In this document: in pieces, positions 4,121 through 61,956 of the stretch
How the letters are laid out: every line of letters starts with the position of its first letter
Position numbering within the stretch: position 1 is the stretch's first letter
Sequence record: NC_028780.1
From: Escherichia phage slur07
Reading direction: 5' to 3' (one strand)
DNA: 64,000 bases
Position numbers and translations under genes: made by a program
The notes under the pieces: model-generated
Seen by the model: the letters and a program-made list of their open reading frames with translations, nothing else
Told to the model about the DNA's origin: nothing
Database searches by the model: none

Positions 4121-4181
4121 GTTTACTTTCCGTTTGAGCTGTGGTACTATACAACTATCGGATAAAGAGGAGAACATCATG
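4121..4181 (+). repeat. PeSL-like early promoter/leader cassette (copy 1)
   Basis: GTTTAC 4121-4126, 18-nt spacer, TGgTACTAT 4142-4150, conserved leader ...ctatacaactatc..., SD, ATG 4179. Confidence 0.7.
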
Positions 4182-4367
4182 AAAATTGAAGCACTTAATC
4201 AAGAAGGAAATATCTACGTCATCATTAATGGTGATTTTTTCGTCGACATGGATGAAGTTACTAGTGAAGAACTTGTAGAATTTCTTAAGAAACGTTATAA
4301 TATGTGTGATGAAGTTGCAACTCACATGGCGTGTGCAATATTCTCTCTTTCATATGTGGTGGAATAA
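4179..4367 (+). CDS. hypothetical protein
   Basis: 62 aa from ATG 4179 downstream of cassette; track ORF start 4134 rejected because it translates the promoter leader. Confidence 0.5.
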
Positions 4368-4570
4368 TGATTAGTATCGAACAAGCGGATAAAATTAAGG
4401 AATTGGTAGCTTTAATTCGTAAAGCAGATGAGGAACTTAGTGACTTTGCTTGGTTTTCGTCAGGCATTGCAAATAAAAGTATTGAAGAACTTGAAGATAA
4501 AGTTAATAATGCTGTAGAAGCGTTAGATATGTTTCTTGATGAAATTATCGATCATAATACGAGAGTTTAA
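4367..4570 (+). CDS. hypothetical small helical protein
   Basis: 67 aa; TAATG overlap with upstream gene; xEQ(A/K)xKI motif. Confidence 0.45.
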   Translation: MISIEQADKIKELVALIRKADEELSDFAWFSSGIANKSIEELEDKVNNAVEALDMFLDEIIDHNTRV

Positions 4571-4572
4571 GT

Positions 4573-4767
4573 ATGCTAACACGCGAACAGTTTGAAAAAA
4601 TCATTAAATTAGCACGTGATATTGAAATAGATTCATATCAATTAGCAGTTGAGCATTGTGAAGGATATTCATACGACGGTATAGAAGCAGCTAAAAAGGA
4701 TTTGGATAAATCCAAAGCTAAGTTAGTTCAATATCTTGAAATGATTAGGTGGAATAATGAAAACTGA
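4573..4767 (+). CDS. hypothetical small helical protein
   Basis: 64 aa; MLTREQFEKIIKL... family-like N-terminus. Confidence 0.45.
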   Translation: MLTREQFEKIIKLARDIEIDSYQLAVEHCEGYSYDGIEAAKKDLDKSKAKLVQYLEMIRWNNEN

Positions 4768-4930
4768 AAAGCAGATGTTTTTAATGAAGCTAATTGAAGA
4801 ATATGCTAATGCAGTTTCTGACTATGAATGTTCTTCTCGTGAAAGAGGTACAGCTTTCGCAAAGGAAGAAATGAAAATCATGGTTGATGCTCATACAAAG
4901 CTTCAGAATTTTATCGAAAACGTCATTTAA
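4757..4930 (+). CDS. hypothetical small protein
   Basis: 57 aa ORF not in track; MKTEKQMFLMKLIEEY...; overlaps upstream gene by 11 nt. Confidence 0.35.
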   Translation: MKTEKQMFLMKLIEEYANAVSDYECSSRERGTAFAKEEMKIMVDAHTKLQNFIENVI

Positions 4931-4932
4931 TG

Positions 4933-4962
4933 GTTTACAAGTTGGCAAGGTTATGGTATAGT
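4933..4962 (+). promoter_or_regulatory. T4-type early promoter
   Basis: GTTTAC 4933-4938, 18 nt, TGGTATAGT (-10 4957-4962). Confidence 0.6.
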
Positions 4963-5094
4963 AATCTTGTCAACTGCCAAGGAGAAGAGAATGAAAGTTT
5001 TGTTTGTTGTGTATGTGGTGATTCAATATAATTACCCAATGTTTACTTATAATCTGGTGAACAACATTATTGATATGATTCAGAGGAGTATGTA

Positions 5095-5640
5095 ATGACG
5101 GTAGCGGCGAAACGATTAGTATTAGAAGTTAGTTCACTTTTTGGTGAATTGGCTATAGAAAAAGTAAATAATATGTATCGTTTGACACAAGAAGACGATA
5201 TGCTATATTTTACGCCTAGTGAAATCATTCATTTAACCCAAATTGAAAATCCTTATACTGATAAAATTGTAAGCATTAATGATGAGCATAAAATTCATTT
5301 TTATTCTTCATGCCCAGGATTTAATATTGAAAGCGAGTCAATATGCTTATCAGTTATCCATTGGGATAGTTTTATAGATAAGATTAAATATTTTTATTAT
5401 TCTAATGAAAGAAAACACAGTTTAAAATGGTTTAAAAATTGCAATGCTATTATTACTAACGCTTGCAATCAGAATGATGAAACTGTTTTAAACGTATCAA
5501 AATGTTATGAAGATGGAGATGTCTTAACTATTCGTCAAATTGATGATTTTCGAGCACATATTGTCACATTTACCAAAGACGAAGCTATTGCACTAAAGAC
5601 TTATCTTGATTCTGTTATTCCAACTATGATTTCAAAGTGA
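5095..5640 (+). CDS. hypothetical protein (paralog pair member A)
   Basis: 181 aa; C-terminal ...DEAIALKTYLDSVIPTMISK similar to next ORF. Confidence 0.5.
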   Translation: MTVAAKRLVLEVSSLFGELAIEKVNNMYRLTQEDDMLYFTPSEIIHLTQIENPYTDKIVSINDEHKIHFYSSCPGFNIESESICLSVIHWDSFIDKIKYFYYSNERKHSLKWFKNCNAIITNACNQNDETVLNVSKCYEDGDVLTIRQIDDFRAHIVTFTKDEAIALKTYLDSVIPTMISK

Positions 5641-5646
5641 GGAAAT

Positions 5647-6168
5647 ATGTTTATTTCAAGTGAAAGTGGTTTAATTCGTGTTGAATTTAAAAATGACATC
5701 TTCCTTAGTCAAGGAGATGATATTATTAAAATGAGTTATGACGAAATCAAGAAAATTTGTCATACTCTTGAAAGCCGTGGAAAAGTAAATGCTGTTATTG
5801 ACATCGGTGATTTATGGGTAACGCTTTATGAAGTATCCGAAGGATTTAACATTGAAGATGAAAATAACATTTTAGCTATTGATAAAAGAACTGATTTGTT
5901 TGATGTATTAAAAGCCTATGAACAGTCAAATGGTGGAAGAAAAGCTGCATTGATTTATCAAAAACCACATTCATGTGGAACTGCTTCAATCATTTCAAAT
6001 ATTGAAGGTGAAGTTGATACTTATATGTGTGTTTTAAAAGCTGGTGGTGACCGTCATCCGGATTTTATTTCTATTCGTCAAAACAATGGAGAAATTTCAT
6101 TATCAAAATCAGAAGCTGAAGCTATGATTAAGTATTTAACAACCATTACGCCTTCAATGAAAGGATAA
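5647..6168 (+). CDS. hypothetical protein (paralog pair member B)
   Basis: 173 aa; C-terminal ...SEAEAMIKYLTTITPSMKG similar to previous ORF; shared GFNIE(S/D)E core. Confidence 0.5.
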   Translation: MFISSESGLIRVEFKNDIFLSQGDDIIKMSYDEIKKICHTLESRGKVNAVIDIGDLWVTLYEVSEGFNIEDENNILAIDKRTDLFDVLKAYEQSNGGRKAALIYQKPHSCGTASIISNIEGEVDTYMCVLKAGGDRHPDFISIRQNNGEISLSKSEAEAMIKYLTTITPSMKG

Positions 6169-6170
6169 TT

Positions 6171-7641: not shown

Positions 7642-7643
7642 TA

Positions 7644-7667
7644 GGGAGCCTTCGGGCTCCCTTTTTT
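7644..7667 (+). terminator. rho-independent terminator
   Basis: gggagcc-ttcg-ggctccc hairpin followed by T6. Confidence 0.75.
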
Positions 7668-7691
7668 ATTTCAAAAATTTTTCACAAAACT

Positions 7692-7758
7692 GTTTACAAG
7701 CATAAAGCTTTATGGTACTATACAACTATCAACTGATACGGATTTGGAGAATAAAATG
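7692..7758 (+). repeat. PeSL-like early promoter/leader cassette (copy 2)
   Basis: GTTTAC 7692-7697, TGgTACTAT -10 7716-7721, leader ctatacaactatcaactgatacggatttggagaataaaATG, near-identical to 34913-34979. Confidence 0.75.
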
Positions 7759-8822: not shown

Positions 8823-9128
8823 ATGATGTTATACTCAAAGGCTCGTGAAATTTATGAAACTAAAATTAAAGAAGCAGTATTTCAGTTCGCAACAACGATG
8901 CGATGGACAAATGATTGGGAGTATTCAAAAAATCATAAGAAGTCCTTGGTGACAAGAAAGGCTCATATGTTAGTGTTAATAGACCGTGAGCAGATTAAAG
9001 CCCGAGAAGCCCTCCAGAATCATAAAAAGGCTGCCTTTGAATGGTTTATGGATAACACTGCTCCTGAGACTAAGAAAGCAGTGAGCGCGTGGTTCAGTGG
9101 AAAAAATTGTGAAAGAAGTTTCTTTTAG
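8823..9128 (+). CDS. hypothetical protein
   Basis: about 101 aa; SD ggagg 8816-8820; start ATG 8823 or 8826. Confidence 0.4.
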   Translation: MMLYSKAREIYETKIKEAVFQFATTMRWTNDWEYSKNHKKSLVTRKAHMLVLIDREQIKAREALQNHKKAAFEWFMDNTAPETKKAVSAWFSGKNCERSFF

Positions 9129-9130
9129 TT

Positions 9131-9191
9131 GTTTACAAGACCGTTCCTCTGTGGTACTATACAACTATCAACTACGGAGGAACAGAAAATG
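9131..9191 (+). repeat. PeSL-like early promoter/leader cassette (copy 3)
   Basis: GTTTAC 9131-9136, TACTAT 9155-9160; arms GTTCCTC 9143-9149 / GAGGAAC 9177-9183 can pair, enclosing -10 and SD; ATG 9189. Confidence 0.75.
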
Positions 9192-9716
9192 AATGCTAAA
9201 GATATTTTCAACTTGGTAAACTACAATGATGGTAAATTTAAATCTGAAGCTCAAAGCAAGTTCTTTAATGACATCTCAATTGGAGGTGAAATCACTGTTG
9301 ATGGAGGACAAATTTACAAATCACGTTGGAATTGGATCGTTATTATTGATGAGATTGGTATTGTAGAAATTTACAAAAATACGAATAAAAATCGTACATT
9401 ACACTGGTCTCGTGATACTAACGAACAGTACAAAAAGGATAAAGCATCTAAATTATCTCGTGTAACTCAAGAAGATATTGAGTTCATCAAGAAAGATATT
9501 TTGATGTATGATAACTTAATTGCTGAAGAGCAAGCTGTTATTGATAAATTTGATGAGATTAAAGCTTCTCGTGAAATTCCTGATTTTATGAAAGAATCAG
9601 TAAATGAACGATACACTCTCATTTCAGAGCGTATTGAAACTTACAAAAAGCAAAGAGCTGAACGCCAGAATACTCTTCGGAAGTTTGAAGAACGGTTAAA
9701 GACGGTACTCGCATAA
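9189..9716 (+). CDS. hypothetical protein with C-terminal amphipathic tail
   Basis: 175 aa; C-terminal charged helix ...RQNTLRKFEERLKTVLA similar in character to the next four large ORFs. Confidence 0.5.
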   Translation: MNAKDIFNLVNYNDGKFKSEAQSKFFNDISIGGEITVDGGQIYKSRWNWIVIIDEIGIVEIYKNTNKNRTLHWSRDTNEQYKKDKASKLSRVTQEDIEFIKKDILMYDNLIAEEQAVIDKFDEIKASREIPDFMKESVNERYTLISERIETYKKQRAERQNTLRKFEERLKTVLA

Positions 9717-9718
9717 CC

Positions 9719-11082: not shown

Positions 11083-12102
11083 ATGAAAACTCGTTCTCAA
11101 ATTGAAGATATGGTTCGTAATGCCAGCTATACTCGTGATGTTATGACATTTTTGTGCCAAAATAATTTAGACCCTGATAAAGTTAATCGTGATATTCACT
11201 TTAAATATATGAATAGCAGTGAATGGTTACGTCATTTTAGTAAAGCGGGGTATATTACACAAATGACTGCTCGTGAGCAGCTCACCGATTTCTGTAAAAC
11301 TATTGATTATAAAAATCCTCTATTTGTTCAAGGTGTTGGTCAGAGTAAGGTCGATTTATCATCTGGATTTTTCAATCCAAATCATTATCGTATTGAATGG
11401 AGATTTATTGCTCTATTCCGTAAACAATTAAAGCAAATTTTGTCGACGGCTAGTCGATTAAAAGGTTCTGATATTAACTTAAAGAATCTGAAATTTGATG
11501 GTTATACTCTTCAGATGGAAGTAAGACCATTAAAAGAAAATAATAGAACTGCACGAATTAGCTTTAAACCTAATACAAAAAATTCTCTTTCAATTTGTGA
11601 ATGCCTTAAATCACAGTTGACAGAAGCATTTAAGTATATGGATGTTGTTGCTGCTGTTCAATCTAAGATTTTACCTCGTTTTGAACGATTTAAGTTAGAT
11701 ACAACATCATATGAACTTGATATGATCGTTTCATTTAAATACGATTTTTTGAGAAAGGACGAAGTCCCGCAAGAGAAAAAGCAGGAAGTGCAAGATAACT
11801 TAAATTTATCCAATTACTTATCAAACGATCCTAAATTTTGGATGTATAGTTCAGGTAATAATGATGCATGGAAATTCAATAAAGTGAATTTTCTTCCTGT
11901 TGAAAATCCGAGTCTTAAACCTGTTGAAAAATGGCACGCGGATGCGATTGAGAAGTCTATCAAGGCAGTAGATGATGAACTCGTTAAAGCGACCAATGAA
12001 GTGCTAGAAGCTGAAAAGGCGTTAGAACAAGCTCAAGAAAAAGTAAAAAATCTCACGAAGCAACGTTCTAAACTGAACAATGCACTAAATGCACTGAACT
12101 AG
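11083..12102 (+). CDS. hypothetical protein, tandem array member 2
   Basis: 339 aa; N-terminus MKTRSQIEDM; C-terminal tail ...KQRSKLNNALNALN. Confidence 0.5.
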   Translation: MKTRSQIEDMVRNASYTRDVMTFLCQNNLDPDKVNRDIHFKYMNSSEWLRHFSKAGYITQMTAREQLTDFCKTIDYKNPLFVQGVGQSKVDLSSGFFNPNHYRIEWRFIALFRKQLKQILSTASRLKGSDINLKNLKFDGYTLQMEVRPLKENNRTARISFKPNTKNSLSICECLKSQLTEAFKYMDVVAAVQSKILPRFERFKLDTTSYELDMIVSFKYDFLRKDEVPQEKKQEVQDNLNLSNYLSNDPKFWMYSSGNNDAWKFNKVNFLPVENPSLKPVEKWHADAIEKSIKAVDDELVKATNEVLEAEKALEQAQEKVKNLTKQRSKLNNALNALN

Positions 12103-12131
12103 TTTACTTTGCCACAAGGATGTGGTATAAT
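12102..12131 (+). promoter_or_regulatory. T4-type early promoter
   Basis: GTTTAC 12102-12107, 18 nt, TGTGGTATAAT (-10 12126-12131); same promoter variant as 57128-57157. Confidence 0.7.
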
Positions 12132-34830: not shown

Positions 34831-34912
34831 CATACAAGTAATATAAATCTATACTTATGAAAAACAGATGATTCTGGACCTTTAGAATTCCCTAAAAAAT
34901 TTTCACAAAACT

Positions 34913-34979
34913 GTTTACAAGACTGTTCCTCTGTGGTACTATACAACTATCAACTAATACGGATTTGGAGAATAAAATG
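34913..34979 (+). repeat. PeSL-like early promoter/leader cassette (copy 4)
   Basis: GTTTAC 34913-34918, TACTAT 34937-34942, leader ...ctatacaactatcaactaatacggatttggagaataaaATG (ATG 34977). Confidence 0.75.
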
Positions 34980-35213
34980 AAAATTGTTTATGGTTGCTTA
35001 GCAGTGTGTTTAGTTGCATTAGCCGCTGTTCCATTTATTGATATTGAAAATGATACTCAGAATGTGATTGAATCTAATACTGTTATTCACATGAATGGTA
35101 AAGTATCAACAAAAATTGATGATAATCTTCATATGAATACTAATGGAACGCTGGGTGTTCAATTAGGTAATACCTGTGTAAGCACTACTGGAGTAATTAC
35201 TACTTGTATTTGA
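34977..35213 (+). CDS. secreted/membrane hypothetical protein
   Basis: 78 aa; N-terminal hydrophobic segment (IVYGCLAVCLVALAAVPFI). Confidence 0.45.
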   Translation: MKIVYGCLAVCLVALAAVPFIDIENDTQNVIESNTVIHMNGKVSTKIDDNLHMNTNGTLGVQLGNTCVSTTGVITTCI

Positions 35214-40666: not shown

Positions 40667-40687
40667 TGGTTAAATGAGGAGATTGTT

Positions 40688-46667: not shown

Positions 46668-46693
46668 AGCTTCTGAAGTATACGGAGGCTATC

Positions 46694-50912: not shown

Positions 50913-51147
50913 ATTAAGTTGGTACCAATTTAAATCTCTTATGACAAATGTTAAAGCTGTCATTAAAGAAAATCAGGGTCCTGAAAATATTACTATTCGC
51001 GAAAAAGCTTTAAAGATAGTATACAGTCTTGAAGAAATACAAAAAGACATTGAATCTATGGCAAAATTTATTGATGAGCCTATCAATAAAGTTTATATTC
51101 AAGACTATACTGTAGGTCAAATTCGTGATTTAGCGAGGAAAATTTAA
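50905..51147 (+). CDS. hypothetical protein, tandem paralog 3 of 3
   Basis: about 80 aa from ATG 50905; aligns with paralog 2 (WYQFKSL..., LEEIQKDI..., IQDYTVGQI). Confidence 0.45.
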   Translation: MIELSWYQFKSLMTNVKAVIKENQGPENITIREKALKIVYSLEEIQKDIESMAKFIDEPINKVYIQDYTVGQIRDLARKI

Positions 51148-51830: not shown

Positions 51831-51836
51831 AAAGTT

Positions 51837-51866
51837 GTTTACTTCCTCGGTTAGTTATGGTATTAT
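51837..51866 (+). promoter_or_regulatory. T4-type early promoter
   Basis: GTTTAC 51837-51842, 18 nt, TGGTATTAT (-10 51861-51866). Confidence 0.65.
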
Positions 51867-51893
51867 AACACCATAGCTACTGAGGATAATAAA

Positions 51894-52397
51894 ATGAAAA
51901 TTTATCGTGTTGAATCATCATTTAGTATTCTTAATTATGAAGATGCTATAACAATACGTCGAGATCTTTGTGTTCAAATAACTCCGTACAGGAGTATAAT
52001 AGATTCATGGAGTGAAGAGTGGTTATTACGCGTAGGTTATGACAGACCCAATTTTATGCATCATAGTAATGATAATAAAAGAATTCCTGTGCCGCATGAA
52101 GACAAATTATTAGTTAAAAATGCTAATATAGCAATTAATACTAATTTTGAGAAAGAAGAATATGTAGGCGTAGATCACTATATTCCAGGATGGTTTATAG
52201 CTCTTTATCATTTTGCTTTCGCTAGCGAATATGATATGATGAGATGGTTCACACGAGAAGAGCGTGAAGAATTAGCTTCTAAAGGATTTTATCTTGCTGT
52301 ATACGAAGTTCCTGAAGATGAAGTTATCATTGGTGGGCACCAAGTAATGTTCCGCAAATCCCATGCCGAATTAAAAGGCTTTATTACCTTAGATTAA
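51894..52397 (+). CDS. hypothetical protein
   Basis: 167 aa ORF downstream of early promoter. Confidence 0.45.
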   Translation: MKIYRVESSFSILNYEDAITIRRDLCVQITPYRSIIDSWSEEWLLRVGYDRPNFMHHSNDNKRIPVPHEDKLLVKNANIAINTNFEKEEYVGVDHYIPGWFIALYHFAFASEYDMMRWFTREEREELASKGFYLAVYEVPEDEVIIGGHQVMFRKSHAELKGFITLD

Positions 52398-52407
52398 AGA
52401 GAAAATT

Positions 52408-52845
52408 ATGATTAAAAATAATGCTGTTTATCAATTGAAAAAATTTGATGAAATTAAGAATTTTTCGGTACTGTCTAATACAGCTCATAATAAGTTTTGT
52501 GAACTTCTTGGTTTAACTGGCGGATATCCTTTTACTGTTATTAGTGTTAATAGCGGAATTCTTATCGGTATGATGTATATTGAAATTAGAAACTATTATG
52601 GAATGGTATCACCGCTTATTATTTATGAAAAAGATTTTAGTCTATTGACAGAAATTGAAAAACCTGAAGACCCGACTGATTTGTTGTGTAAGGCAGTTTA
52701 TATTCGTCGTCCATTCGCGAATCCGATTGGCGGTTGGGTAACTGACCAGTGGATTGAAGATGGCGTTGAACTTCTTAATGTAGTTCATGCTGGAGAGTAC
52801 TCCGTAGTTCCTCGCAGCGCAGTGATTAATGTTCGTGTAAGCTAG
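52408..52845 (+). CDS. hypothetical protein (paralog pair, shared C-terminal domain)
   Basis: 145 aa; C-terminal ..GGWVTDQWIEDGVELLNVVHAGEYSVVP.. shared with 52919..53407. Confidence 0.5.
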   Translation: MIKNNAVYQLKKFDEIKNFSVLSNTAHNKFCELLGLTGGYPFTVISVNSGILIGMMYIEIRNYYGMVSPLIIYEKDFSLLTEIEKPEDPTDLLCKAVYIRRPFANPIGGWVTDQWIEDGVELLNVVHAGEYSVVPRSAVINVRVS

Positions 52846-52880
52846 TTTACAAACTCTTGGGACCAGAGTATAATGGTCCC
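52845..52880 (+). promoter_or_regulatory. T4-type early promoter with stem-loop around the -10
   Basis: GTTTAC 52845-52850, TATAAT 52869-52874 flanked by GGGACC 52859-52864 / GGTCCC 52875-52880. Confidence 0.7.
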
Positions 52881-52918
52881 GCGGAGTATAAAATCTTTTT
52901 AACAAGTGAGAAATAACT

Positions 52919-53407
52919 ATGATTATTAATATTGGTGAATTAGCTCGTGTATCTGATAAATCCCGCTCTAAAGCAGCAGGAAAATTGGTCGAAATTGTAA
53001 GCATTCAGCTTAAACATGGCGTTAAAGATGAAGATTCTGAAGTAAAAGTGCGTATCATTCCTAAAGATGGAAAGTCTAAACCCCAGTTTGGCTATGTTCG
53101 TGCGAAATTTCTTGAATCTGCGTTTTTGAAAGCTGTTCCTGCTAAAGTAATTGAAACGATTGATACTTCACATGTAGGCGTAGACTTTAAGTGGAAACTC
53201 GGTCAAGCTATTAAGTTCATTGCTCCTTGCGAATTTAAATTTATCAAAGATGATGGAAAGGCTGCTTATACTCGTGCTATGTGTGGATATATTACCGATC
53301 AATGGGTAGAAGATGGCGTTAAGTTATACAATGTGGTATTTTTAGGAACATACAAAGTCATTCCTGAAAGTTGGATTAAACACTATAGCAATGCTCTCTA
53401 TGCATAA
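52919..53407 (+). CDS. hypothetical protein (paralog pair, shared C-terminal domain)
   Basis: 162 aa; C-terminal ..CGYITDQWVEDGVKLYNVVFLGTYKVIP.. Confidence 0.5.
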   Translation: MIINIGELARVSDKSRSKAAGKLVEIVSIQLKHGVKDEDSEVKVRIIPKDGKSKPQFGYVRAKFLESAFLKAVPAKVIETIDTSHVGVDFKWKLGQAIKFIAPCEFKFIKDDGKAAYTRAMCGYITDQWVEDGVKLYNVVFLGTYKVIPESWIKHYSNALYA

Positions 53408-53420
53408 AGTTTAAAATTTT

Positions 53421-53507
53421 TTCATAAAACTATATACATCAGTAGTTGATTATGGTACTATATCAATATCAACTACTGATACAGAAAACAACTTGGAGAA
53501 TAAAATG
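53421..53507 (+). repeat. PeSL-like promoter/leader cassette with 11-bp perfect stem (copy 5)
   Basis: CAGTAGTTGAT 53440-53450 / ATCAACTACTG 53468-53478 enclose TGGTACTAT (-10 53456-53461); -35 degenerate; leader ends ..cttggagaataaaATG 53505. Confidence 0.7.
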
Positions 53508-53774
53508 GAAAACTTAATTATCATCGAGCAATCTTTCAACGATTATGGTATGGCTTACGGTTATCGTGCGATAATGGAAGATTCTCGTGGATGTGTTATC
53601 GATATTGCTGAATGTAAAGATTTACTGCAGCTTTTGAAGATTGTTCGCAAAAATTGGGATTGTGAAAACATTAAAGCTCGTGTTGTAACGGAAGAAGAAA
53701 CTGTTTTTCATGATGTAAAATTTGCCAAAGGTGCTGCTACTCTTCTGAAACGCATCGCTCCACTGTTCAATTAA
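53505..53774 (+). CDS. hypothetical protein
   Basis: 89 aa from ATG 53505 downstream of cassette. Confidence 0.45.
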   Translation: MENLIIIEQSFNDYGMAYGYRAIMEDSRGCVIDIAECKDLLQLLKIVRKNWDCENIKARVVTEEETVFHDVKFAKGAATLLKRIAPLFN

Positions 53775-53787
53775 TGAGGAAATTGTA

Positions 53788-54003
53788 ATGAAACGTAAAA
53801 TTGTTCAGAATTGCACTAATGACGAATTTGAAGATGTATTATTTGATCCAGATTTGGTAGTAGTTCAAAAGGAACACACCATCAAGTTTACTCACTTGAC
53901 TTCGGTTTATGTGTATGAAAAGGTTGGTGATAAACAACCGATTTATGGTGTATTCCGTGAAATCACTGAAGACGGTACAACTTACTGGAAGGAAATTTAT
54001 TAA
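53788..54003 (+). CDS. hypothetical protein
   Basis: 71 aa ORF. Confidence 0.4.
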
Positions 54004-54422
54004 TGGCTATTAGATTTGAAGTTAATAAATGGTATCAATTTAAAAATAAACAAGCTCAAGAAGCTTTTATTAAAGACCATACTGATAACGGAATCTACGC
54101 ACGACGTTTAGGTATGGAACCTTTTAAAATTTTAGATGTTGACCATCTCAGTCGTCCTACTAAAATTGTGACATCTACTGGCACGGTTGGATACGCAACA
54201 GGCGGTGATATCCTTGATGAAAACTTTATCTGGCTCTCCACGAATGAAGCAGAGTTCTTTGACGAAGTTGGAAATCCATATCAAGCGTCCGAAGAGCAAA
54301 AGCAGGAAGAGCAAGAACAAATAGAAGATTTCACAGAATTCCCGGTCATGAAAGTTACTATTGAAAATAATGAACAGGCATGGTCCTTGTATCAGATGTT
54401 GAAAGCACACTTTAAGGAATAA
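54003..54422 (+). CDS. hypothetical protein
   Basis: 139 aa ORF; acidic C-terminal region. Confidence 0.4.
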
Positions 54423-54424
54423 TT

Positions 54425-54601
54425 ATGCCAATGTATGATTATAAATGCCAATCCGAAGATTGCGGGCATGAATATGAAAAAATTAAAAAGATTTCTGAAC
54501 GAGAAAATGATGTTTGTCCTAAATGTCATCGTCTGTCTACTCGTCGGCCTTCTGCTCCTAAGCATGTGAATGGCGGTTTTTACGACTTACTTAAAGGGTA
54601 A
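54425..54601 (+). CDS. zinc-ribbon small protein
   Basis: 58 aa ORF not in track; YKCQSEDCGH...CPKCH four-ligand ribbon. Confidence 0.4.
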   Translation: MPMYDYKCQSEDCGHEYEKIKKISERENDVCPKCHRLSTRRPSAPKHVNGGFYDLLKG

Positions 54602-54603
54602 TT

Positions 54604-54975
54604 ATGTTTAAAATCGGTAAGAAGTATCGCATTCGTGAAGGTGAAGAACAGAAATATCTATTTTCTGCTAGTAATAGGAATAGTTCTATTAATGCTGTAA
54701 TATTGACTAGTGAATTTATCGTTGAAGATATGAAAGGTCATAATGTTACAATGATTAGTACAGCATCTGGAAATGATGGAAAAATTCTTCATAGTTGTCA
54801 GAGTAATGTTCTAATTTATGATGAAGAATTTGACTTCTTCAAAGAAGTTTCCGAAGATTTTGATTTTGAATGTACTATTACTATGAAATCTGGTGACCCT
54901 CTTTCTTTTACAGTTAAAGATGAAAGAAGTCGCTTGAGAATTATTAGTCTTCTTCAAGCCATTAAATTTGAGTGA
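54604..54975 (+). CDS. hypothetical protein
   Basis: 123 aa ORF. Confidence 0.4.
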   Translation: MFKIGKKYRIREGEEQKYLFSASNRNSSINAVILTSEFIVEDMKGHNVTMISTASGNDGKILHSCQSNVLIYDEEFDFFKEVSEDFDFECTITMKSGDPLSFTVKDERSRLRIISLLQAIKFE

Positions 54976-55241
54976 AAATTATGAAATATATTAATCGTTC
55001 TATCGCTGCATTAGTATTAGCAGTGTCTTTAGCAGGATGTACTGATGCTGATAATGCAACCAAAGTTTTATCTTCAAGTGGTTTTACTAATATTGAAATC
55101 ACTGGATATAATTGGTTTGGTTGTTCTGAAAATGATTTCCAACATACTGGATTTCGTGCTATTGGACCTACTGGGCAGAAAGTAGAAGGAACAGTATGTT
55201 CTGGTCTATTCTTCAAAGATTCGACTATCCGTTTTAAATAA
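54972..55241 (+). CDS. putative lipoprotein
   Basis: 89 aa; signal peptide with lipobox LAGC (MKYINRSIAALVLAVSLAGCTD). Confidence 0.5.
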   Translation: MKIMKYINRSIAALVLAVSLAGCTDADNATKVLSSSGFTNIEITGYNWFGCSENDFQHTGFRAIGPTGQKVEGTVCSGLFFKDSTIRFK

Positions 55242-55243
55242 AA

Positions 55244-55258
55244 GGCCTTCGGGCCTTT
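55244..55258 (+). terminator. rho-independent terminator
   Basis: GGCCTTCGGGCC hairpin followed by TTTAGCTTT. Confidence 0.6.
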
Positions 55259-55283
55259 AGCTTTATGATTACCGGAGTATAAT
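55259..55283 (+). promoter_or_regulatory. putative MotA-dependent middle promoter for gene 39
   Basis: aGCTTTA 55259-55265, 12 nt, TATAAT 55278-55283. Confidence 0.55.
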
Positions 55284-55310
55284 ATTCCCGAAACCAAACG
55301 AGGATAAGTG

Positions 55311-57128
55311 ATGATTAAGAATGAAATTAAAATTCTGAGCGATATTGAACACATCAAAAAGCGTAGTGGCATGTACATTGGTTCTTCAGCTAATGAAATG
55401 CATGAGCGCTTTCTGTTTGGTAAATGGGAAAGTGTTCAGTATGTACCTGGTCTTGTTAAGCTTATTGATGAAATTATCGATAACTCAGTAGATGAAGGTA
55501 TTCGTACTAAGTTTAAATTCGCAAATAAAATTAATGTTACTATTAAAAATAATCAGGTAACAGTTGAAGATAACGGTCGTGGTATTCCACAGGCTATGGT
55601 TAAAACACCTACTGGTGAAGAAATTCCTGGTCCTGTTGCTGCATGGACTATTCCAAAAGCAGGTGGTAACTTTGGTGATGATAAAGAACGCGTCACTGGC
55701 GGTATGAATGGTGTTGGTTCTAGTTTGACAAACATTTTTTCTGTGATGTTTGTCGGTGAAACTGGTGATGGTCAAAATAATATTGTAGTTCGTTGTTCAA
55801 ACGGCATGGAAAATAAATCATGGGAAGATATTCCTGGAAAATGGAAAGGAACTCGTGTTACTTTCATTCCTGATTTTATGTCATTTGAAACTAATGAGCT
55901 GTCCCAAGTTTATCTTGACATTACACTAGATCGTCTCCAGACACTTGCAGTAGTTTATCCTGATATTCAATTTACCTTTAATGGTAAAAAGGTTCAGGGC
56001 AATTTTAAGAAATATGCACGACAGTATGATGAACATGCTATTGTTCAAGAACAAGAAAATTGTTCTATTGCGGTTGGTCGTTCACCGGATGGTTTTCGTC
56101 AATTAACATACGTCAATAACATTCATACTAAGAATGGTGGCCATCACATTGACTGTGTTATGGATGATATTTGTGAAGACCTTATTCCACAAATCAAACG
56201 TAAGTTCAAAATTGATGTAACTAAAGCACGCGTTAAAGAATGTTTGACTATCGTTATGTTTGTTCGTGATATGAAAAACATGCGATTTGATTCTCAAACT
56301 AAAGAGCGTTTGACTTCTCCATTTGGTGAAATCCGTAGTCATATTCAGCTTGATGCTAAAAAGATTTCACGTGCTATTCTAAATAATGAAGCAATTCTAA
56401 TGCCGATTATTGAAGCTGCCTTGGCTCGTAAATTGGCAGCAGAAAAAGCAGCTGAAACTAAAGCAGCTAAAAAGGCCTCTAAGGCAAAGGTTCATAAACA
56501 TATTAAAGCGAATCTTTGCGGTAAAGATGCTGACACTACTCTTTTCTTGACTGAGGGTGATTCTGCTATCGGATATCTTATTGATGTTCGTGATAAAGAA
56601 CTTCACGGTGGTTATCCATTGCGTGGTAAAGTTCTTAATAGCTGGGGTATGTCATATGCCGATATGCTTAAAAACAAAGAACTATTTGATATTTGCGCAA
56701 TCACTGGTCTAGTTCTTGGTGAAAAAGCTGAAAACTTGAATTATCATAATATTGCTATTATGACTGATGCTGACCATGATGGTCTAGGAAGCATTTATCC
56801 TTCTCTGCTCGGGTTTTTTAGTAATTGGCCAGAATTGTTTGAGCAAGGAAGAATTCGCTTTGTCAAAACTCCTGTAATCATCGCTCAGGTCGGTAAAAAA
56901 CAAGAATGGTTTTATACAGTCGCTGAATATGAGAGTGCCAAAGATGCTCTACCTAAACATAGCATCCGTTATATTAAAGGACTTGGCTCTTTGGAAAAAT
57001 CTGAATATCGTGAGATGATTCAAAATCCAGTATATGATGTTGTTAAACTTCCTGAGAACTGGAAAGAGCTTTTTGAAATGCTCATGGGAGATAATGCTGA
57101 CCTTCGTAAAGAATGGATGAGCCAGTAG
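55311..57128 (+). CDS. 39: DNA topoisomerase II large subunit, unsplit (ATPase + TOPRIM in one ORF)
   Basis: 605 aa from ATG 55311; GHKL ATPase motifs plus C-terminal TOPRIM (LTEGDSA, IMTDADHDG), which in T4 lies in separate gene 60. Confidence 0.9.
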   Translation: MIKNEIKILSDIEHIKKRSGMYIGSSANEMHERFLFGKWESVQYVPGLVKLIDEIIDNSVDEGIRTKFKFANKINVTIKNNQVTVEDNGRGIPQAMVKTPTGEEIPGPVAAWTIPKAGGNFGDDKERVTGGMNGVGSSLTNIFSVMFVGETGDGQNNIVVRCSNGMENKSWEDIPGKWKGTRVTFIPDFMSFETNELSQVYLDITLDRLQTLAVVYPDIQFTFNGKKVQGNFKKYARQYDEHAIVQEQENCSIAVGRSPDGFRQLTYVNNIHTKNGGHHIDCVMDDICEDLIPQIKRKFKIDVTKARVKECLTIVMFVRDMKNMRFDSQTKERLTSPFGEIRSHIQLDAKKISRAILNNEAILMPIIEAALARKLAAEKAAETKAAKKASKAKVHKHIKANLCGKDADTTLFLTEGDSAIGYLIDVRDKELHGGYPLRGKVLNSWGMSYADMLKNKELFDICAITGLVLGEKAENLNYHNIAIMTDADHDGLGSIYPSLLGFFSNWPELFEQGRIRFVKTPVIIAQVGKKQEWFYTVAEYESAKDALPKHSIRYIKGLGSLEKSEYREMIQNPVYDVVKLPENWKELFEMLMGDNADLRKEWMSQ

Positions 57129-57157
57129 TTTACTTTACCACAAGGATGTGGTATAAT
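57128..57157 (+). promoter_or_regulatory. T4-type early promoter
   Basis: GTTTAC 57128-57133, 18 nt, TGTGGTATAAT (-10 57152-57157); near-identical to 12102-12131. Confidence 0.7.
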
Positions 57158-57182
57158 TAATTGGGCAAATGAGGATATTGAA

Positions 57183-57386
57183 ATGAAATCATATAAAGTA
57201 AATTTAGAACTTTTTGATAAAGCAGTTCATCGAGAATATAGAATCATTCAACGCTTTTTCGATATGGGAGAAGCCGAAGAATTTAAAAACCGCTTTAAAG
57301 ATATTAGAGATAAAATTCAATCCGACACTGCAACTAAAGATGAACTACTAGAAGTTGCTGAAGTTATTAAGCGTAATATGAATTAA
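57183..57386 (+). CDS. hypothetical protein (rIIA.1 position)
   Basis: 67 aa ORF between 39 and rIIA. Confidence 0.45.
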
Positions 57387-57396
57387 TGAGGAAATT

Positions 57397-59574
57397 ATGA
57401 TTATCACCACTGAAAAAGAAACAATTCTTGGTAATGGTTCTAAATCAAAAGCATTTAGCATCGCAGCAAATCCTAAAGTATTTAAAATTCTGTCATCTGA
57501 TTTGTATACAAACAAGATTCGCGCAGTAGTCCGTGAATTGATTACTAACATGATTGATGCTCATGCTCTCAATGGAAATCCTGAAAAATTTATCATTCAA
57601 GTTCCTGGACGTTTAGATCCACGATTTGTTTGCCGAGATTTTGGTCCCGGTATGAGTGATTTTGATATTCAGGGTGATGATAATTCTCCTGGTTTGTATA
57701 ATTCATACTTCAGTTCATCTAAAGCTGAATCTAACGATTTCATTGGCGGATTTGGTTTAGGTTCTAAATCTCCGTTTAGTTATACTGATACGTTTAGTAT
57801 TACTTCGTATCATAAAGGTGAAATTCGTGGTTATGTAGCTTACATGGATGGCGATGGTCCACAAATTAAACCTACATTCGTAAAAGAAATGGGTCCAAAT
57901 GATAAAACTGGTATTGAAATCGTAGTTCCAGTTGAAGAAAAAGACTTTAGAAACTTTGCTTATGAAGTTTCTTATATCATGCGACCATTCAAAGATTTGG
58001 CTATCATTAATGGTCTTGACCGCGAAATTGATTATTTTCCGGATTTTGATGATTATTACGGTGTAAATCCAGAAAGATACTGGCCAGATCGTGGTGGATT
58101 ATATGCTATCTACGGCGGTATTGTTTATCCTATCGATGGTGTTATTAGAGACCGTAACTGGCTAAGCATTCGCAATGAAGTGAATTACATTAAATTTCCA
58201 ATGGGTTCACTTGATATTGCTCCATCTCGCGAGGCTCTTTCACTAGATGATCGCACTCGTAAAAATATCATTGAACGAGTTAAAGAACTCAGTGAGAAAG
58301 CATTTAATGAAGATGTAAAACGATTTAAAGAATCTACATCTCCTCGTCACACATATCGTGAATTGATGAAGATGGGGTATTCTGCTCGAGATTATATGAT
58401 TAGTAATTCAGTCAAATTCACGACTAAAAATCTGTCATATAAAAAGATGCAGAGCATGTTTGAACCTGACAGTAAGTTATGCAATGCAGGAGTTGTGTAT
58501 GAAGTAAATCTTGACCCTCGACTGAAACGCATTAAGCAAAGCCATGAAACTTCAGCCGTTGCATCAAGTTATCGTCTGTTTGGTATTAATACAACAAAAA
58601 TTAATATCGTTATTGATAATATTAAAAATCGTGTTAATATTGTCCGTGGATTAGCGCATGCGTTAGATGATAGTGAATTTAATAACACTTTAAATATTCA
58701 TCACAATGAGCGTCTTCTGTTTATTAATCCGGAAGTAGAATCGCAGATTGATTTACTACCTGATATTATGGCAATGTTTGAAAGTGATGAAGTTAACATT
58801 CATTATTTGTCAGAAATTGAAGCTTTAGTTAAAAGCTATATTCCAAAGGTAGTTAAAAGTAAAGCTCCTCGTCCTAAAGCTGCTACAGCATTTAAGTTTG
58901 AAATTAAAGACGGGCGCTGGGAAAAAGAGGAACTATTTACACTTACGTCAGAAGCAGATGAAATTACTGGTTATGTAGCGTATATGCATCGTTCTGATAT
59001 TTTCTCTATGGATGGTACTACATCGCTTTGTCATCCATCTATGAATATTTTGATTCGTATGGCTAATCTTATTGGCATTAATGAATTTTATGTTATTCGT
59101 CCGCTTTTGCAGAAAAAGGTAAAAGAGCTCGGTCAGTGCCAATGTATTTTTGAAGCTTTGCGTGATTTATATGTAGATGCTTTTGATGATGTAGATTATG
59201 ATAAGTATGTAGGTTATTCAAGTTCAGCTCAACGATATATTGATAAAATTATCAAGCATCCTGAACTAGATTTTATGATGAAGTACTTCAGTACAGATGA
59301 AGTTTCTGAAGAATATACACGACTCGCTAATATAGTTAGTTCATTGCGCGGTGTATATTTTAATGGTGGAAAAGATACCATCGGTCATGACATCTGGACG
59401 GTAACTAATCTTTTTGATGAATTATCACGTAATGCTTCAAAAAATAGTGATAAAATGGTTGCTGAGTTTACCAAGAAATTCCGTATTGTTTCCGACTTCA
59501 TCGGTTATCGCAACTCTTTAAGTGATGATGAAGTTTCTCAAATCGCTAAAACTATGAAGGCCCTTGCGGCCTAA
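57397..59574 (+). CDS. rIIA: rIIA protein (GHKL-ATPase-like membrane-associated protein)
   Basis: 725 aa (T4 rIIA length); N-terminal GHKL-like motif [10 protein letters not shown]; position upstream of rIIB. Confidence 0.85.
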
Positions 59575-59585
59575 TAAGGAAAATT

Positions 59586-60524
59586 ATGTACAATATTAAA
59601 TGCCTGACCAAAAACGAACAAGCTGAAATTGTTAAACTGTATTCAAGTGGTAATTACACCCAACAGGAATTGGCTGATTGGCAAGGTGTATCGGTTGACA
59701 CAATCCGTCGTGTTTTGAAAAATGCTGAAGAAGCTAAACGCTCTAAAGTTACTATTAGCGGTGATATTACAATTAAAGTTAATAGCGATGCAGTTATTGC
59801 TCCAGTTGCTAAATCTGACATTATTTGGAATGCATCTAAAAAATTCATTTCAATTACTGTCGACGGTGTAACTTATAACGCAACTCCTAATACTCATTCA
59901 AACTTCCAGGAAATTCTTAATCTGCTCGTAGCAGATAAGTTAGAAGAAGCAGCACAAAAAATTAATGTTCGTCGCGCTGTTGAAAAATATATTTCCGGCG
60001 ATGTTCGAATTGAAGGTGGAAGCTTGTTCTATCAAAATATCGAATTGCGGTCTGGTTTGGTTGATCGTATTCTTGACTCGATGGAAAAAGGCGAAAACTT
60101 TGAATTTTATTTTCCGTTCTTGGAAAATCTGTTGGAAAACCCAAGCCAAAAAGCTGTATCTCGACTCTTTGATTTCTTGGTAGCAAACGATATTGAAATT
60201 ACAGAAGATGGTTACTTCTATGCTTGGAAAGTAGTTCGTGACAACTACTTTGACTGTCACTCAAACACCTTTGATAACAGTCCTGGTAAAGTAGTTAAAA
60301 TGCCGCGTACTCGTGTGAATGACGATGATACACAAACTTGTTCTCGTGGTCTGCATGTGTGTTCTAAATCTTATATTCGTCACTTTGGCAGTTCAACCAG
60401 CCGAGTTGTAAAAGTTAAAGTACATCCACGTGATGTAGTATCAATTCCGATTGATTACAACGATGCTAAAATGCGTACCTGCCAATACGAAGTAGTTGAA
60501 GACGTTACTGAACAATTTAAATAA
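59586..60524 (+). CDS. rIIB: rIIB protein
   Basis: 312 aa (T4 rIIB length); N-terminal HTH-like segment (QQELADWQGVSVDTIRRVLK). Confidence 0.8.
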   Translation: MYNIKCLTKNEQAEIVKLYSSGNYTQQELADWQGVSVDTIRRVLKNAEEAKRSKVTISGDITIKVNSDAVIAPVAKSDIIWNASKKFISITVDGVTYNATPNTHSNFQEILNLLVADKLEEAAQKINVRRAVEKYISGDVRIEGGSLFYQNIELRSGLVDRILDSMEKGENFEFYFPFLENLLENPSQKAVSRLFDFLVANDIEITEDGYFYAWKVVRDNYFDCHSNTFDNSPGKVVKMPRTRVNDDDTQTCSRGLHVCSKSYIRHFGSSTSRVVKVKVHPRDVVSIPIDYNDAKMRTCQYEVVEDVTEQFK

Positions 60525-60525
60525 G

Positions 60526-60540
60526 GGCTTCGGCCCTTAT
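60526..60540 (+). terminator. rho-independent terminator
   Basis: GGGCTTCGGCCC hairpin followed by TTAT. Confidence 0.55.
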
Positions 60541-60556
60541 CATATTAAGGAAAATT

Positions 60557-60751
60557 ATGTTAGGTTATCAAGCACGAGTAAAAGAAGAATACGATCAATT
60601 AATGCTCAAAATTAATGCACTGAGCAAATTTTTAGAAAGCACAAAGTTTCTAACGGTTAGTGCAGTTGAGCAAGAACTGCTGCTTTCACAGTTCATCTCA
60701 ATGAAATCTTATGCTGAGTGTCTAGAGAAAAGAATCGCACAATTCAAATAA
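60557..60751 (+). CDS. hypothetical protein
   Basis: 64 aa ORF flanked by two terminator hairpins. Confidence 0.4.
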   Translation: MLGYQARVKEEYDQLMLKINALSKFLESTKFLTVSAVEQELLLSQFISMKSYAECLEKRIAQFK

Positions 60752-60756
60752 AATAA

Positions 60757-60777
60757 GGGCTTCGGCCCTTTTGTTTT
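60757..60777 (+). terminator. rho-independent terminator
   Basis: GGGCTTCGGCCC hairpin followed by TTTTGTTTT. Confidence 0.75.
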
Positions 60778-60814
60778 AAGAGAAATTATGATTCCGACAT
60801 AAAGGAAAGTTTAA

Positions 60815-61372
60815 ATGCAGAAAACGAATCCGGGTTTACAGAGACTATTTCAGATTCCGACATTTACCCTATCGAACAGTGACTTGACTAGTGAAATGAA
60901 GGTCAAAATTGCTGATACAGCAAGATACTCTTTAAAACAAAACCCGAACCAGGATAAAGCAGAAGTTATCGAAAGATGCCGTATCGCTGTGTACGCAGAG
61001 TTTTTTGTGGCAGATTGGCTAAGCGGATATGTCAATAAAGGCCAAGAAGATGTCGATGATCCGTACACATATGCATGGGATGTTTTAGCACATCCAAAAT
61101 ACTGTGGGCTCCGTGTAGAAGTTAAGACACATCAAACTGACTCGCGTTGGATTTCGGTAACAACGGGATGCAGCGGAGAGTATCCATATGGTTCTGGAAT
61201 AAATCTAGGGCCCATTCTAAATCATCAAGTCGCGGACTGTATAATTATATTCAACACTAAAGAAATTCATCCAGGTGTCATCCAGTACACTCCGAAGTTC
61301 ATCGGTGACAGAGAAGACCTTCGTAAGGTTGTAAGAAAAAGCAACTACAACGGATGGTATCTTTCTATTTAA
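60815..61372 (+). CDS. denB: DenB-like endonuclease (endonuclease IV position)
   Basis: 185 aa (T4 DenB length) directly after rIIB. Confidence 0.5.
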   Translation: MQKTNPGLQRLFQIPTFTLSNSDLTSEMKVKIADTARYSLKQNPNQDKAEVIERCRIAVYAEFFVADWLSGYVNKGQEDVDDPYTYAWDVLAHPKYCGLRVEVKTHQTDSRWISVTTGCSGEYPYGSGINLGPILNHQVADCIIIFNTKEIHPGVIQYTPKFIGDREDLRKVVRKSNYNGWYLSI

Positions 61373-61389
61373 AAAAATTTCATAAAACA

Positions 61390-61449
61390 GTTTACATACC
61401 ACAAGGACCGTGGTACTATACAACTATCAGCTACGGAGGAGTAAAAATG
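61390..61449 (+). repeat. PeSL-like early promoter/leader cassette (copy 6)
   Basis: GTTTAC 61390-61395, TACTAT 61414-61419, leader ..ctatacaactatcagctacggaggagtaaaaATG (ATG 61447). Confidence 0.75.
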
Positions 61450-61710
61450 AAATTTAAATTTTATTACGCTAAACATAAAATTACCGGTGAATTTATTGCA
61501 TTTACGACTTCAACTACAGGTGAAGGAGATATTTTTACTGCAGTATTTTTATCAAAATGGGAATCAGATCAACCTTACTTATCATCACGTGAAGATCTCC
61601 AACGATTAGTTAATGGAGAATATAATGATTCATGGTCATATTTAGTCCATGATTGTGTTAAAAAGGCAATAAAACAAAAACACCTGGAAATCGTTGAGAT
61701 TGAACTATGA
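61447..61710 (+). CDS. hypothetical protein
   Basis: 87 aa from ATG 61447; track start 61354 translates the promoter. Confidence 0.45.
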   Translation: MKFKFYYAKHKITGEFIAFTTSTTGEGDIFTAVFLSKWESDQPYLSSREDLQRLVNGEYNDSWSYLVHDCVKKAIKQKHLEIVEIEL

Positions 61711-61895
61711 GTTCATTATGGTGGTGTTTTGTTTGGTTAATTAGTATTCCAGTAATTTGTTTAACATTTACTTTTGTGATGAGGTTATTATGAAAATTTT
61801 GAATTCTGTACTTATTGCGTGTGCATGGTTGGTTGCACAAGTTTCGGCAGTAGTGATTGGTATTCACATTTATTACGAATATTTTTAAAAAAGTT

Positions 61896-61956
61896 GTTTA
61901 CAAGACTGTTCTTCCGTGGTACTATTACCCTATCAACTACGGAGGAACAGAAAATG
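61896..61956 (+). repeat. PeSL-like early promoter/leader cassette (copy 7)
   Basis: GTTTAC 61896-61901, TACTAT 61920-61925; CTGTTCTTCC 61906-61915 pairs (9/10) with GGAGGAACAG 61941-61950 sequestering the SD; ATG 61954. Confidence 0.75.

Follow-up and report, generated by a model that had tools for sequence, protein, structure and literature searches.

Seven early-promoter cassettes of Escherichia phage slur07 form a mosaic family resembling promoter-early-stem-loop elements

Introduction

Is the resemblance between early promoters scattered along the DNA of Escherichia phage slur07 that of a promoter consensus, or do some of these promoters belong to a family of expression cassettes? We considered this question for a 64,000-nucleotide stretch of sequence record NC_028780.1 (referred to as the window). 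An earlier note on this DNA had described seven sites, here S1 to S7, at which an early promoter with the -35 element GTTTAC is joined to a conserved leader and to one of two endings comprising a Shine-Dalgarno sequence (SD) and an ATG, and had matched them to the promoter-early-stem-loop (PeSL) elements of T4-type phages. Our analysis indicates that the seven sites are very probably self-contained expression cassettes (PeSLs of the T4/PST type) that have SDs recognized by RegB, are insulated from upstream transcription, and exchange modules with one another.

In BLAST comparisons the first 20 kb of the window share 96-98% identity with genomes of the genus Tequatrovirus, JK38 and RB14 among them, which places the window in this genus. 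There are 446 records that cover most of these 20 kb, and the plus strand of the window matches the minus strand of the closest of them. (Note that the 3' part of regB maps to positions 1 to ~256.)

Results

Seven early promoters share a transcribed leader

All seven cassettes are on the plus strand (Table 1). Each consists of an A/T-rich tract that resembles an UP element, GTTTAC, a spacer of 18 nt, TGG immediately followed by TACTAT, and a further 27-43 nt up to the ATG. In particular, GTTTAC-N18-TACTAT with the directly preceding TGG and the upstream A/T-rich tract is present in six of the seven, the -35 element of S5 being degenerate, and every cassette ends in a GGAG-type SD followed by ATG. 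With the start of transcription taken to be ~7 nt after the -10 element (the usual spacing), the 5' untranslated region (5'UTR), counted from this predicted start, would be ~21-37 nt long.

The family stands out by several measures. GTTTAC-N17-19-TACTAT has seven matches in the window versus 0.04 expected from shuffles; six of these are cassettes, and the remaining one, at 41132, is an early promoter outside the set. S5 is not caught by this pattern because its -35 element is ATATAC, so that the promoter motif ascribed to all seven sites in the earlier note is found at six, even though all seven cassettes are present. The 22-mer TGGTACTATACAACTATCAACT, which spans the -10 element and the leader, occurs six times with at most three mismatches (0 expected), and GGTACTAT occurs on the plus strand exactly seven times, always at one of the seven sites. 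Moreover, a blind repeat search recovered the family as its largest groups (D1, D2 and D5).

Formal alignment of the seven cassettes shows that TGGTACTAT and TATC are invariant and that further blocks downstream are common to the copies; whole SD modules of 18-30 nt are shared by several of them. When the 11 other early-promoter cassettes of the window served as the comparison set, pairwise identity over the 20 nt after the -10 element was 70% within the family, 32% among the 11 others and 40% between the two groups. The shared leader thus exceeds the generic early-promoter consensus. Identity in the promoter spacer was 49% within the family versus 40% among the other early promoters. Because identity is high in the leader and low in the spacer, it is the -10 element together with the transcribed leader that defines the family, and by these comparisons the seven sites make up a single paralogous sub-family among T4-type early promoters. 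(Note that the leader of S7, previously given as starting ACAACTATC, in fact starts TACCCTATC.)

The sites were placed by combining the T4 and RB14 annotations with BLAST mapping. T4 carries all seven cassettes at orthologous positions with 90-100% identity, so that the repeats are not absent from relatives at homologous positions; five were found within the part of the RB14 genome that was compared. Further members of the family in T4 are the motA promoter (PmotA), whose -10 element and leader TGGTACTATACAACTATCAACTACTGATAC are identical to those of the cassettes, and, in part, that of motB.2. The T4 records NC_000866 and AF158101 have no promoter features annotated in the stretches examined, and a literature search for RNA-Seq of T4 transcription start sites returned nothing relevant.

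T4 and RB14 annotate the cassette-driven genes from the ATG. A mechanically called open reading frame (ORF) at 9129..9716 begins at a TTG inside the S3 promoter and reads MFTRPFLCGTIQLSTTEEQKM ahead of the true start. The spurious N-terminal extensions that had been noted before are therefore a real artefact, but the peptide said to be shared by them, CGTIQLSTTEEQKM, arises at S3 only, and S7 gives RGTITLSTTEEQKM. A peptide-coding role of the conserved leader was rejected; the extensions differ between copies and stem from the upstream starts chosen by the ORF lister. Since the cassettes mark the true starts of genes, a mechanically called ORF that begins inside a promoter (9129..9716, for example) should be shortened so as to start at the ATG.

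Table 1 Coordinates of the cassettes, their stem-loops and the variable ORFs they precede
Feature	Position in window	Strand	Position in T4	Parts and remarks
S1 cassette	4088..4181	+	upstream of mobD.5	98% identical to T4 58801-58706; -35 GTTTAC 4121; TGGTACTAT; leader ACAACTATCGG; SD GAGGAG; ATG 4179
S1 intrinsic terminator	4088-4105			AGTCTCCTTCGGGAGACT + T6
S2 cassette	7643..7758	+	upstream of nrdC.10	UP element; GTTTAC 7692; TGGTACTAT; leader; SD module B GGAGAATAAAA 7746-7756; ATG 7756
S2 intrinsic terminator	7643-7662			AGGGAGCCTTCGGGCTCCCT + T6
S3 cassette	9101..9191	+	upstream of nrdC.8	UP element; GTTTAC 9131; TGGTACTAT; leader; SD module A; ATG 9189
S3 hairpin	9143-9183			13 bp; 5' arm within the promoter spacer, 3' arm across the SD, most of the -10 hexamer in the loop
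S4 cassette	34883..34979	+	upstream of imm.1, after gene 43	type-a spacer with SD module B (mosaic); ATG 34977
S4-driven ORF	34977..35213	+		78 amino acids; absent from T4 and RB14; lies before imm.1; 316 phage records
S5 cassette	53404..53507	+	motB-cef spacer	ATATAC 53432; TGGTACTAT; SD module C; ATG 53505
S5 inverted repeat	~53438-53480			perfect, 13 nt; ATCAGTAGTTGAT/ATCAACTACTGAT; brackets the -10 element
S5-driven ORF	53505..53774	+		89 amino acids; T4 and RB14 keep a short fused remnant (internal deletion); 259 records
S6 cassette	61360..61449	+	just after denB	promoter as in T4; SD module A'; ATG 61447
S6-driven ORF	61447..61710	+		87 amino acids; T4 keeps the 3' remnant only; full length in 112 phage records
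S7 cassette	61866..61956	+	upstream of ndd.4	GTTTAC 61896; TGGTACTAT; variant leader; SD module A; ATG 61954
S7 hairpin	61906-61950			15 bp; promoter spacer paired with the SD

SD modules of the cassettes include predicted RegB/S1 sites

The cassettes end in SD module A (ACGGAGGAACAGAAAATG; S3 and S7), A' (ACGGAGGAGTAAAAATG; S6), B (GATACGGATTTGGAGAATAAAATG; S2 and S4) or C (GATACAGAAAACAACTTGGAGAATAAAATG; S5), with S1 having a separate module of its own. The endings are thus modular, as had been recognized, but they are of more than two kinds.

The site of the endonuclease RegB with S1 is an 11-nt single-stranded sequence of intergenic early mRNA, GGAGRAYARAA, whose optimum in T4 is GGAGAAUAAAA (Durand 2006, PMC1702504). 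In the 64 kb there are just three perfect matches to this consensus, and they are the SDs of S2, S4 and S5, all of which read GGAGAATAAAA; in sequence, module B/C is the published T4 optimum. The SDs of S1 and S6 agree with the consensus at 9 of 11 positions and those of S3 and S7 at 8 of 11. The predicted probability that the SD is unpaired in the cassette's own transcript is 0.54 for S2, 0.80 for S4 and 0.29 for S5, which would make the site largely single-stranded in S2 and S4 and less so in S5. Among T4 messages, motA is a good RegB substrate, nrdC.8 is moderately cleaved, and the GGAU of motB.2 is cleaved (PMC1702504). Cleavage by RegB/S1 is the best-documented function of such SD modules and had been overlooked in the earlier note. 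Given that module B/C corresponds to the T4 optimum, messages that carry it would be translated at the early stage and cleaved later, when RegB has accumulated. Note that because the T4-optimal site sits on paralogous copies of one cassette, the published consensus may in part reflect shared ancestry in addition to selection.

Modules are probably exchanged between copies

Spacers and SD modules are found in different combinations. The type-a spacer occurs with SD module A in S3 and with module B in S4, whereas the type-b spacer occurs with A' in S6 and with B in T4 and in L010, L022, L029 and L032, which are among the 30 stretches (numbered with the prefix L) that a pattern scan returned from IMG/VR contigs. 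All four combinations of spacer and SD module are therefore present across phages. (Three of the 30 stretches, L006, L007 and L026, were set aside as chance matches in coding sequence that lack a -35 element.)

A module switch can also be seen at a single locus. Downstream of denB, collinearity between the window and T4 ends after CAACTATCA, the window continuing with SD module A' and an 87-amino-acid ORF and T4 with module B and a remnant; the four contigs L010, L022, L029 and L032 have module B before the same 87-amino-acid type of ORF. In T4, the post-denB cassette and the imm.1 cassette differ at one position from the -10 element through ATGAAAATCGCT and have different spacers. In addition, in L027 and L030 unrelated leaders and ORFs follow the nrdC.10 and motA promoters. 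The description of the copies as mosaics of sub-modules is borne out by these comparisons, as is the exchange of modules between copies that characterizes PeSLs.

In L021 (~3300) and L024 (~2835; IMG/VR contig 2974787500_000001) the -10 element and leader are kept and a GC-rich hairpin (GGGAGCCTTCGGGCTT or GAGAGCCTCGGCTCTC) takes the place of the half that comprises the -35 element and the spacer. These copies look like the 'half PeSLs' of the 2014 paper.

Stem-loops accompany five of the cassettes

The stem-loop that defines a PeSL had not been seen in the earlier note; it is present in five of the seven cassettes, as a terminator upstream (S1 and S2) or as a hairpin spanning the -10 element (S3, S5 and S7). 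The terminators of S1 and S2 are strong intrinsic terminators located 15-30 nt upstream of these two sites. Folding of the leaders gave significant hairpins for S3 (free energy, dG, -19.4; z score, z, -3.9), S5 (dG -14.5, z -3.6) and S7 (dG -22.7, z -4.8), and no significant hairpin spanning the -10 element for S1, S2, S4 and S6. No RNA family was recognized anywhere in the window when it was searched against Rfam with gathering thresholds.

The spacers of S3 and S7 (CYGTTCYTCYGT) are the reverse complement of a sequence that takes in the SD, ACGGAGGAACAG. The predicted probability that the SD is unpaired is 0.41 for S3 and 0.75 for S7 in RNA from the cassette's own promoter, and is 0.00 for both in read-through RNA from upstream. 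Two other promoters of the window, 51837 and 46638, likewise are predicted to drop from 0.41-0.75 in their own RNA to 0.00 in read-through RNA, and for S4 and S6 the predicted accessibility of the SD is unchanged between the two RNAs. According to a terminator scan, the stretches from S2 to S3 and from S6 to S7 hold no plus-strand terminator, and read-through RNA should therefore exist at S3 and S7. We rejected the -10-spanning hairpins as canonical intrinsic terminators; no T-run follows them and the terminator scan is silent at their positions.

Strong hairpins (z -2.6 to -7.1) also enclose early promoters that are not members of the family, at 4933-4992, 40629-40687, 51837-51894, 52845-52918 and 46638-46693. 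In the first four of these the stems are unrelated, the promoter spacer provides the 5' arm, and the loop or its vicinity holds the -10 element; the SD is part of the 3' arm at 51837 (motB.2) and 46638. A separate paralogous pair is made up of the copies at 4933 and 40629, which are 87% identical over 38 nt.

With one relaxed promoter filter applied uniformly to the window, T4 and RB69, hairpins in which the spacer between the -35 and -10 elements pairs with the leader were found for 5 of 12 candidates in the window, 8 of 16 in 81 kb of T4 and 2 of 7 in 50 kb of RB69, versus 4 of 300 random 60-mers. The eight in T4 include the promoters of regB (62796) and denV (65412). Reading of the sequences indicates that the 3' arm takes in the SD in 8 of ~12 strong hairpins from the window, T4 and RB69, and that stem sequences vary between promoters and between genera. 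The early promoter of T4 regB has a 21-pair hairpin in which its own spacer is joined to its own SD, and RB69 has the same spacer-SD design, with different stems, at 20522 and 43930 (for example TTCTCCAGTAG/CTACTGGAGAA).

Three cassettes adjoin ORFs that vary between phages

An unbiased chain of BLAST alignments between the window and T4 yielded 21 indels or replacements of at least 40 nt. Three of these, at S4, S5 and S6, have breakpoints no more than 5 nt from a cassette, when 0.34 would be expected (P = 0.005). The S4 indel is a gene-sized segment of 239 nt, bordered by the 8-nt direct repeat ATGAAAAT, which T4 and RB14 lack; at S5, T4 and RB14 have lost an internal part of the ORF; and one joint of the S6 indel is inside the leader. 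The T4-only segments of the other 18 indels map to mobD, I-TevII, mobC, mobB, segA, dam, segF and the gene 60/mobA region.

Comparison of the flanking ORFs across T-even genomes shows that they differ between phages at S4, S5 and S6. The proposal that the cassettes mark accessory or recently acquired genes therefore holds for these three of the seven, whose ORFs vary across Tequatroviruses, but not for the other four, which precede genes conserved in T4 and, in the part compared, in RB14. For six of the seven ORFs downstream of cassettes, including those of S4, S5 and S6, there is no Pfam family. Note that about 200 further records align with no more than a short 5' stretch of the S6 ORF; in ~190 phage records the match, at ~91% identity, is confined to its first 45 nt (61450-61494) and divergence follows, so that the first ~15 codons may belong to the exchangeable module.

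By eye, the N-terminus of the 78-amino-acid S4 ORF is hydrophobic and resembles a signal peptide (MKIVYGCLAVCLVALAAVP), and the downstream imm.1 starts MKIAILIIALGLTGC, which reads like a lipoprotein signal; the two may be a pair of small envelope proteins.

Other dispersed elements of the window

Two early promoters, at 12100-12131 and 57126-57157, have in common a 32-nt block, TAGTTTACTTTRCCACAAGGATGTGGTATAAT, that is 97% identical, and have different leaders; they are another mosaic sub-family. Near-identical UUCG-type tetraloop hairpins (AAGGGCTTCGGCCCTT) are located at 20756, 24399, 29823, 55236, 60513 and 60749, and are a second class of dispersed regulatory repeat; a terminator scan over 50500-64000 called the copy at 60755-60770 terminator-like. 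A 786-nt segment (27713-28500) that separates genes 46 and 45.2 is missing in T4 and RB14, and the minus-strand ORF it holds (27726-28442; 238 amino acids), which has a weak, sub-threshold HNH match and CxxC repeats, probably encodes a free-standing homing endonuclease.

Discussion

How might the cassettes work? Each is built from an A/T-rich UP element, GTTTAC, an 18-nt spacer, the extended -10 element TGGTACTAT, a 5'UTR that would begin at about ATCAACT, a GGAG-type SD and an ATG. Judging from their sequence and from their orthology with T4 early promoters, including PmotA, they would be fired by the host sigma70 RNA polymerase immediately after infection. The SD modules would double as strong ribosome-binding sites and as targets of RegB/S1, the latter by analogy with the cleaved T4 orthologues. 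Insulation from upstream transcription would come about in either of two ways: S1 and S2 have an intrinsic terminator just upstream, and in S3, S5 and S7 the promoter spacer forms the 5' arm of a hairpin and the leader or SD its 3' arm. At S3 and S7, folding predicts that read-through RNA hides the SD and that RNA from the cassette's own promoter, which lacks the 5' arm, is open. Because secondary structure protects against RegB (review, PMC3014915), the hairpin would also shield read-through RNA from cleavage. Finally, since copies share 40-90 nt of near identity, homologous recombination would swap sub-modules between them and at times add or remove the adjacent small gene, and comparison between phages points to the mosaics seen here as products of such recombination.

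The PeSLs of PST and T4 have been described as TTTACW-N17-TAYWAT with AT-rich sequence upstream and an SD and ATG at the 3' end (Comeau 2014, PMC4122927, which also deals with nt-1/KVP40). The stem-loop can be upstream of the promoter boxes, between them, overlapping one of them, or downstream (Arbiol 2010, PMC2839356), and in PST and T4 is just upstream (PMC4122927); stem-loops of a similar kind in RB49 have been interpreted as terminators (PMC2839356). The region of ndd.4 and ndd.5, which holds S6 and S7, is a worked example in PMC4122927 (its fig. 6A). The cassettes of the window resemble these elements in their AT-rich upstream sequence, early promoter (which fits the T4/PST consensus), short leader, SD and ATG, and in the mosaic exchange between copies; the resemblance extends in part to a stem-loop upstream or over the -10 element, at five of the seven, and to a place before small ORFs of unknown function in plastic regions. 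They differ from them in that S4 and S6 have no detectable stem-loop, in that their positions are fixed relative to T4, and in that most indels of the window are unrelated to them. The earlier note had the class right, as judged here from class features and the ndd.4/.5 example. PeSLs in T4 and PST (the ndd region included), RegB sites and T4 early promoters have all been published, and the present finding is correct but known.

Other systems offer partial parallels. Canonical T4 early promoters are built from UP, -35, TGn and -10 elements (Hinton 2010, PMC2988021), and the cassettes have these same elements at positions orthologous to those of T4 promoters, including PmotA; unlike most such promoters, the members of this sub-family share an extra 20-45 nt of transcribed sequence. 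As RegB/S1 targets they compare well, in that the SDs of S2, S4 and S5 are the T4 optimum and T4 relatives of the family are cleaved, nrdC.8 (the orthologue of the S3 gene) moderately and motA well (PMC1702504). For T4 e, soc, 49 and I-TevI, a long upstream transcript folds the SD into a helix (Uzan & Miller 2010, PMC3014915); the promoter inside the structure is a late one and the effect is a temporal delay (PMC3014915). S3 and S7 are similar in that the internal promoter is predicted to give a translatable RNA without the 5' arm. In contrast, their internal promoter is of the early sigma70 type, and the structure is predicted to insulate the gene against early transcripts of its neighbours, so that the cassettes may work like this class without being members of it. 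At the T-even internal-protein loci (ipI-III), according to the account of Repoila 1994 given in PMC2839356, early-promoter repeats flank small variable genes and are thought to mediate shuffling. The seven cassettes are at other loci and, by that account, are similar to the conserved 5' cassettes of the internal-protein loci.

Several observations weigh against the view of the cassettes as insulated, RegB-controlled and recombining units. The start of transcription in this phage is placed by the usual spacing of ~7 nt, and SD module A (GGAGGAACAGA) departs from the RegB consensus at three of its 11 positions. S4 and S6 lack both a terminator and a significant hairpin, and insulation is therefore not universal; the S5 hairpin leaves the SD uncovered. 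Among the orthologues of the type-A hairpin there are no compensatory double changes, 10 of 15 pairs being invariant and 3 having one-sided changes that keep the pair; a covariation test with 11 type-A hairpin orthologues and paralogues was uninformative because the sequences are too similar and hold no compensatory changes. The S5 indel probably arose between short AAAAYTT-like repeats and not by exchange between cassettes. Moreover, 18 of the 21 indels relative to T4 are unrelated to cassettes and lie more than 290 nt from any, so that cassettes account for a minority of the plasticity of the window.

Could the family be an over-reading of the leader, with nothing but the generic T4 early-promoter consensus in common? 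Many other early promoters of the window do have GTTTAC, TGG and UP-like A/T tracts, and related short motifs (CTATCAAC, GTCAAC) follow the -10 element of some non-family promoters (T4 and RB69). Nevertheless, the excess of leader identity within the family, the six occurrences of the 22-mer where none is expected, and the sharing of SD modules of 18-30 nt refute this explanation, which we consider scarcely credible. A better case can be made that similarity of leader and SD is kept mainly by functional selection, the mosaics being a convergence on a few optimal modules, given that module B/C is an experimentally defined optimum for RegB/S1 (PMC1702504) and that the leader core CTATCAACTAC persists in the imm.1 promoter of RB69, a phage of a different genus, despite diverged flanks. 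On the other hand, identity covers first codons and positions without known function, as in the ATGAAAATCGCT common to the T4 imm.1 cassette and the post-denB remnant, and the sharp switches of module at a single locus resemble recombination joints. Selection as the main cause is thus unlikely, even though selection and recombination are not mutually exclusive. Less probable still is the suggestion that the cassettes are actively mobile, excising as mini-circles and inserting at new sites so that their positions are recent acquisitions. PeSL mini-circles have been demonstrated for RB49 and phi1 (PMC2839356), the window has direct copies in tandem (S6 and S7 are 506 bp apart, S2 and S3 1439 bp), and three cassettes adjoin ORFs that are variable in presence. 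However, no recombinase is associated with the cassettes, and since all seven are at orthologous positions in T4, with five in the compared part of RB14, active movement within the genus is not supported. That only 3 of 21 indels touch a cassette, one of them a deletion within an ORF, argues that the cassettes are fixed regulatory modules that sometimes recombine rather than active mobile elements.

The function of the -10-spanning hairpins is more evenly contested. Rather than translational insulators they could be attenuators or terminators of upstream RNA, stabilizers of 3' ends, or DNA cruciforms that modulate promoter opening or attract recombination enzymes. In RB49, a PeSL stem-loop cut lacZ expression about as much as rrnB T1 (PMC2839356), and because the hairpins at S5, 4933, 40629 and 52845 do not take in the SD, sequestration of the SD cannot be a function common to all. 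The lack of a T-run and the silence of the terminator scan count against termination, the three variable stem positions of the type-A hairpin change C to U opposite G, or G-C to G-U, and so keep the RNA pairs, and the SD is within the 3' arm in most of the strong hairpins. We regard these alternatives, taken together, as a serious but doubtful possibility. Insulation at the level of translation, by contrast, might extend beyond the family, and we propose, tentatively and with slightly greater confidence than we give to those alternatives, that spacer-SD hairpins at T-even early promoters could be a general, selected design for the translational autonomy of each early gene. Such complementarity was not found described for T-even early promoters in the literature searched, where the design is reported for late promoters only (e, soc, 49 and I-TevI), and may be new, and the component of shared ancestry in the RegB consensus may likewise go beyond that literature.

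The cassettes mark early transcription units, messages that are likely to be controlled by RegB, and sites at which small accessory genes are swapped in T4-like phages. If the proposed design of the hairpins is correct, only RNA from a gene's own promoter would be translated and sensitive to RegB, whereas read-through RNA would stay untranslated and escape RegB. The frequent spacer-SD complementarity, if functional, would then account for the expression of closely packed early genes without regard to their upstream neighbours.

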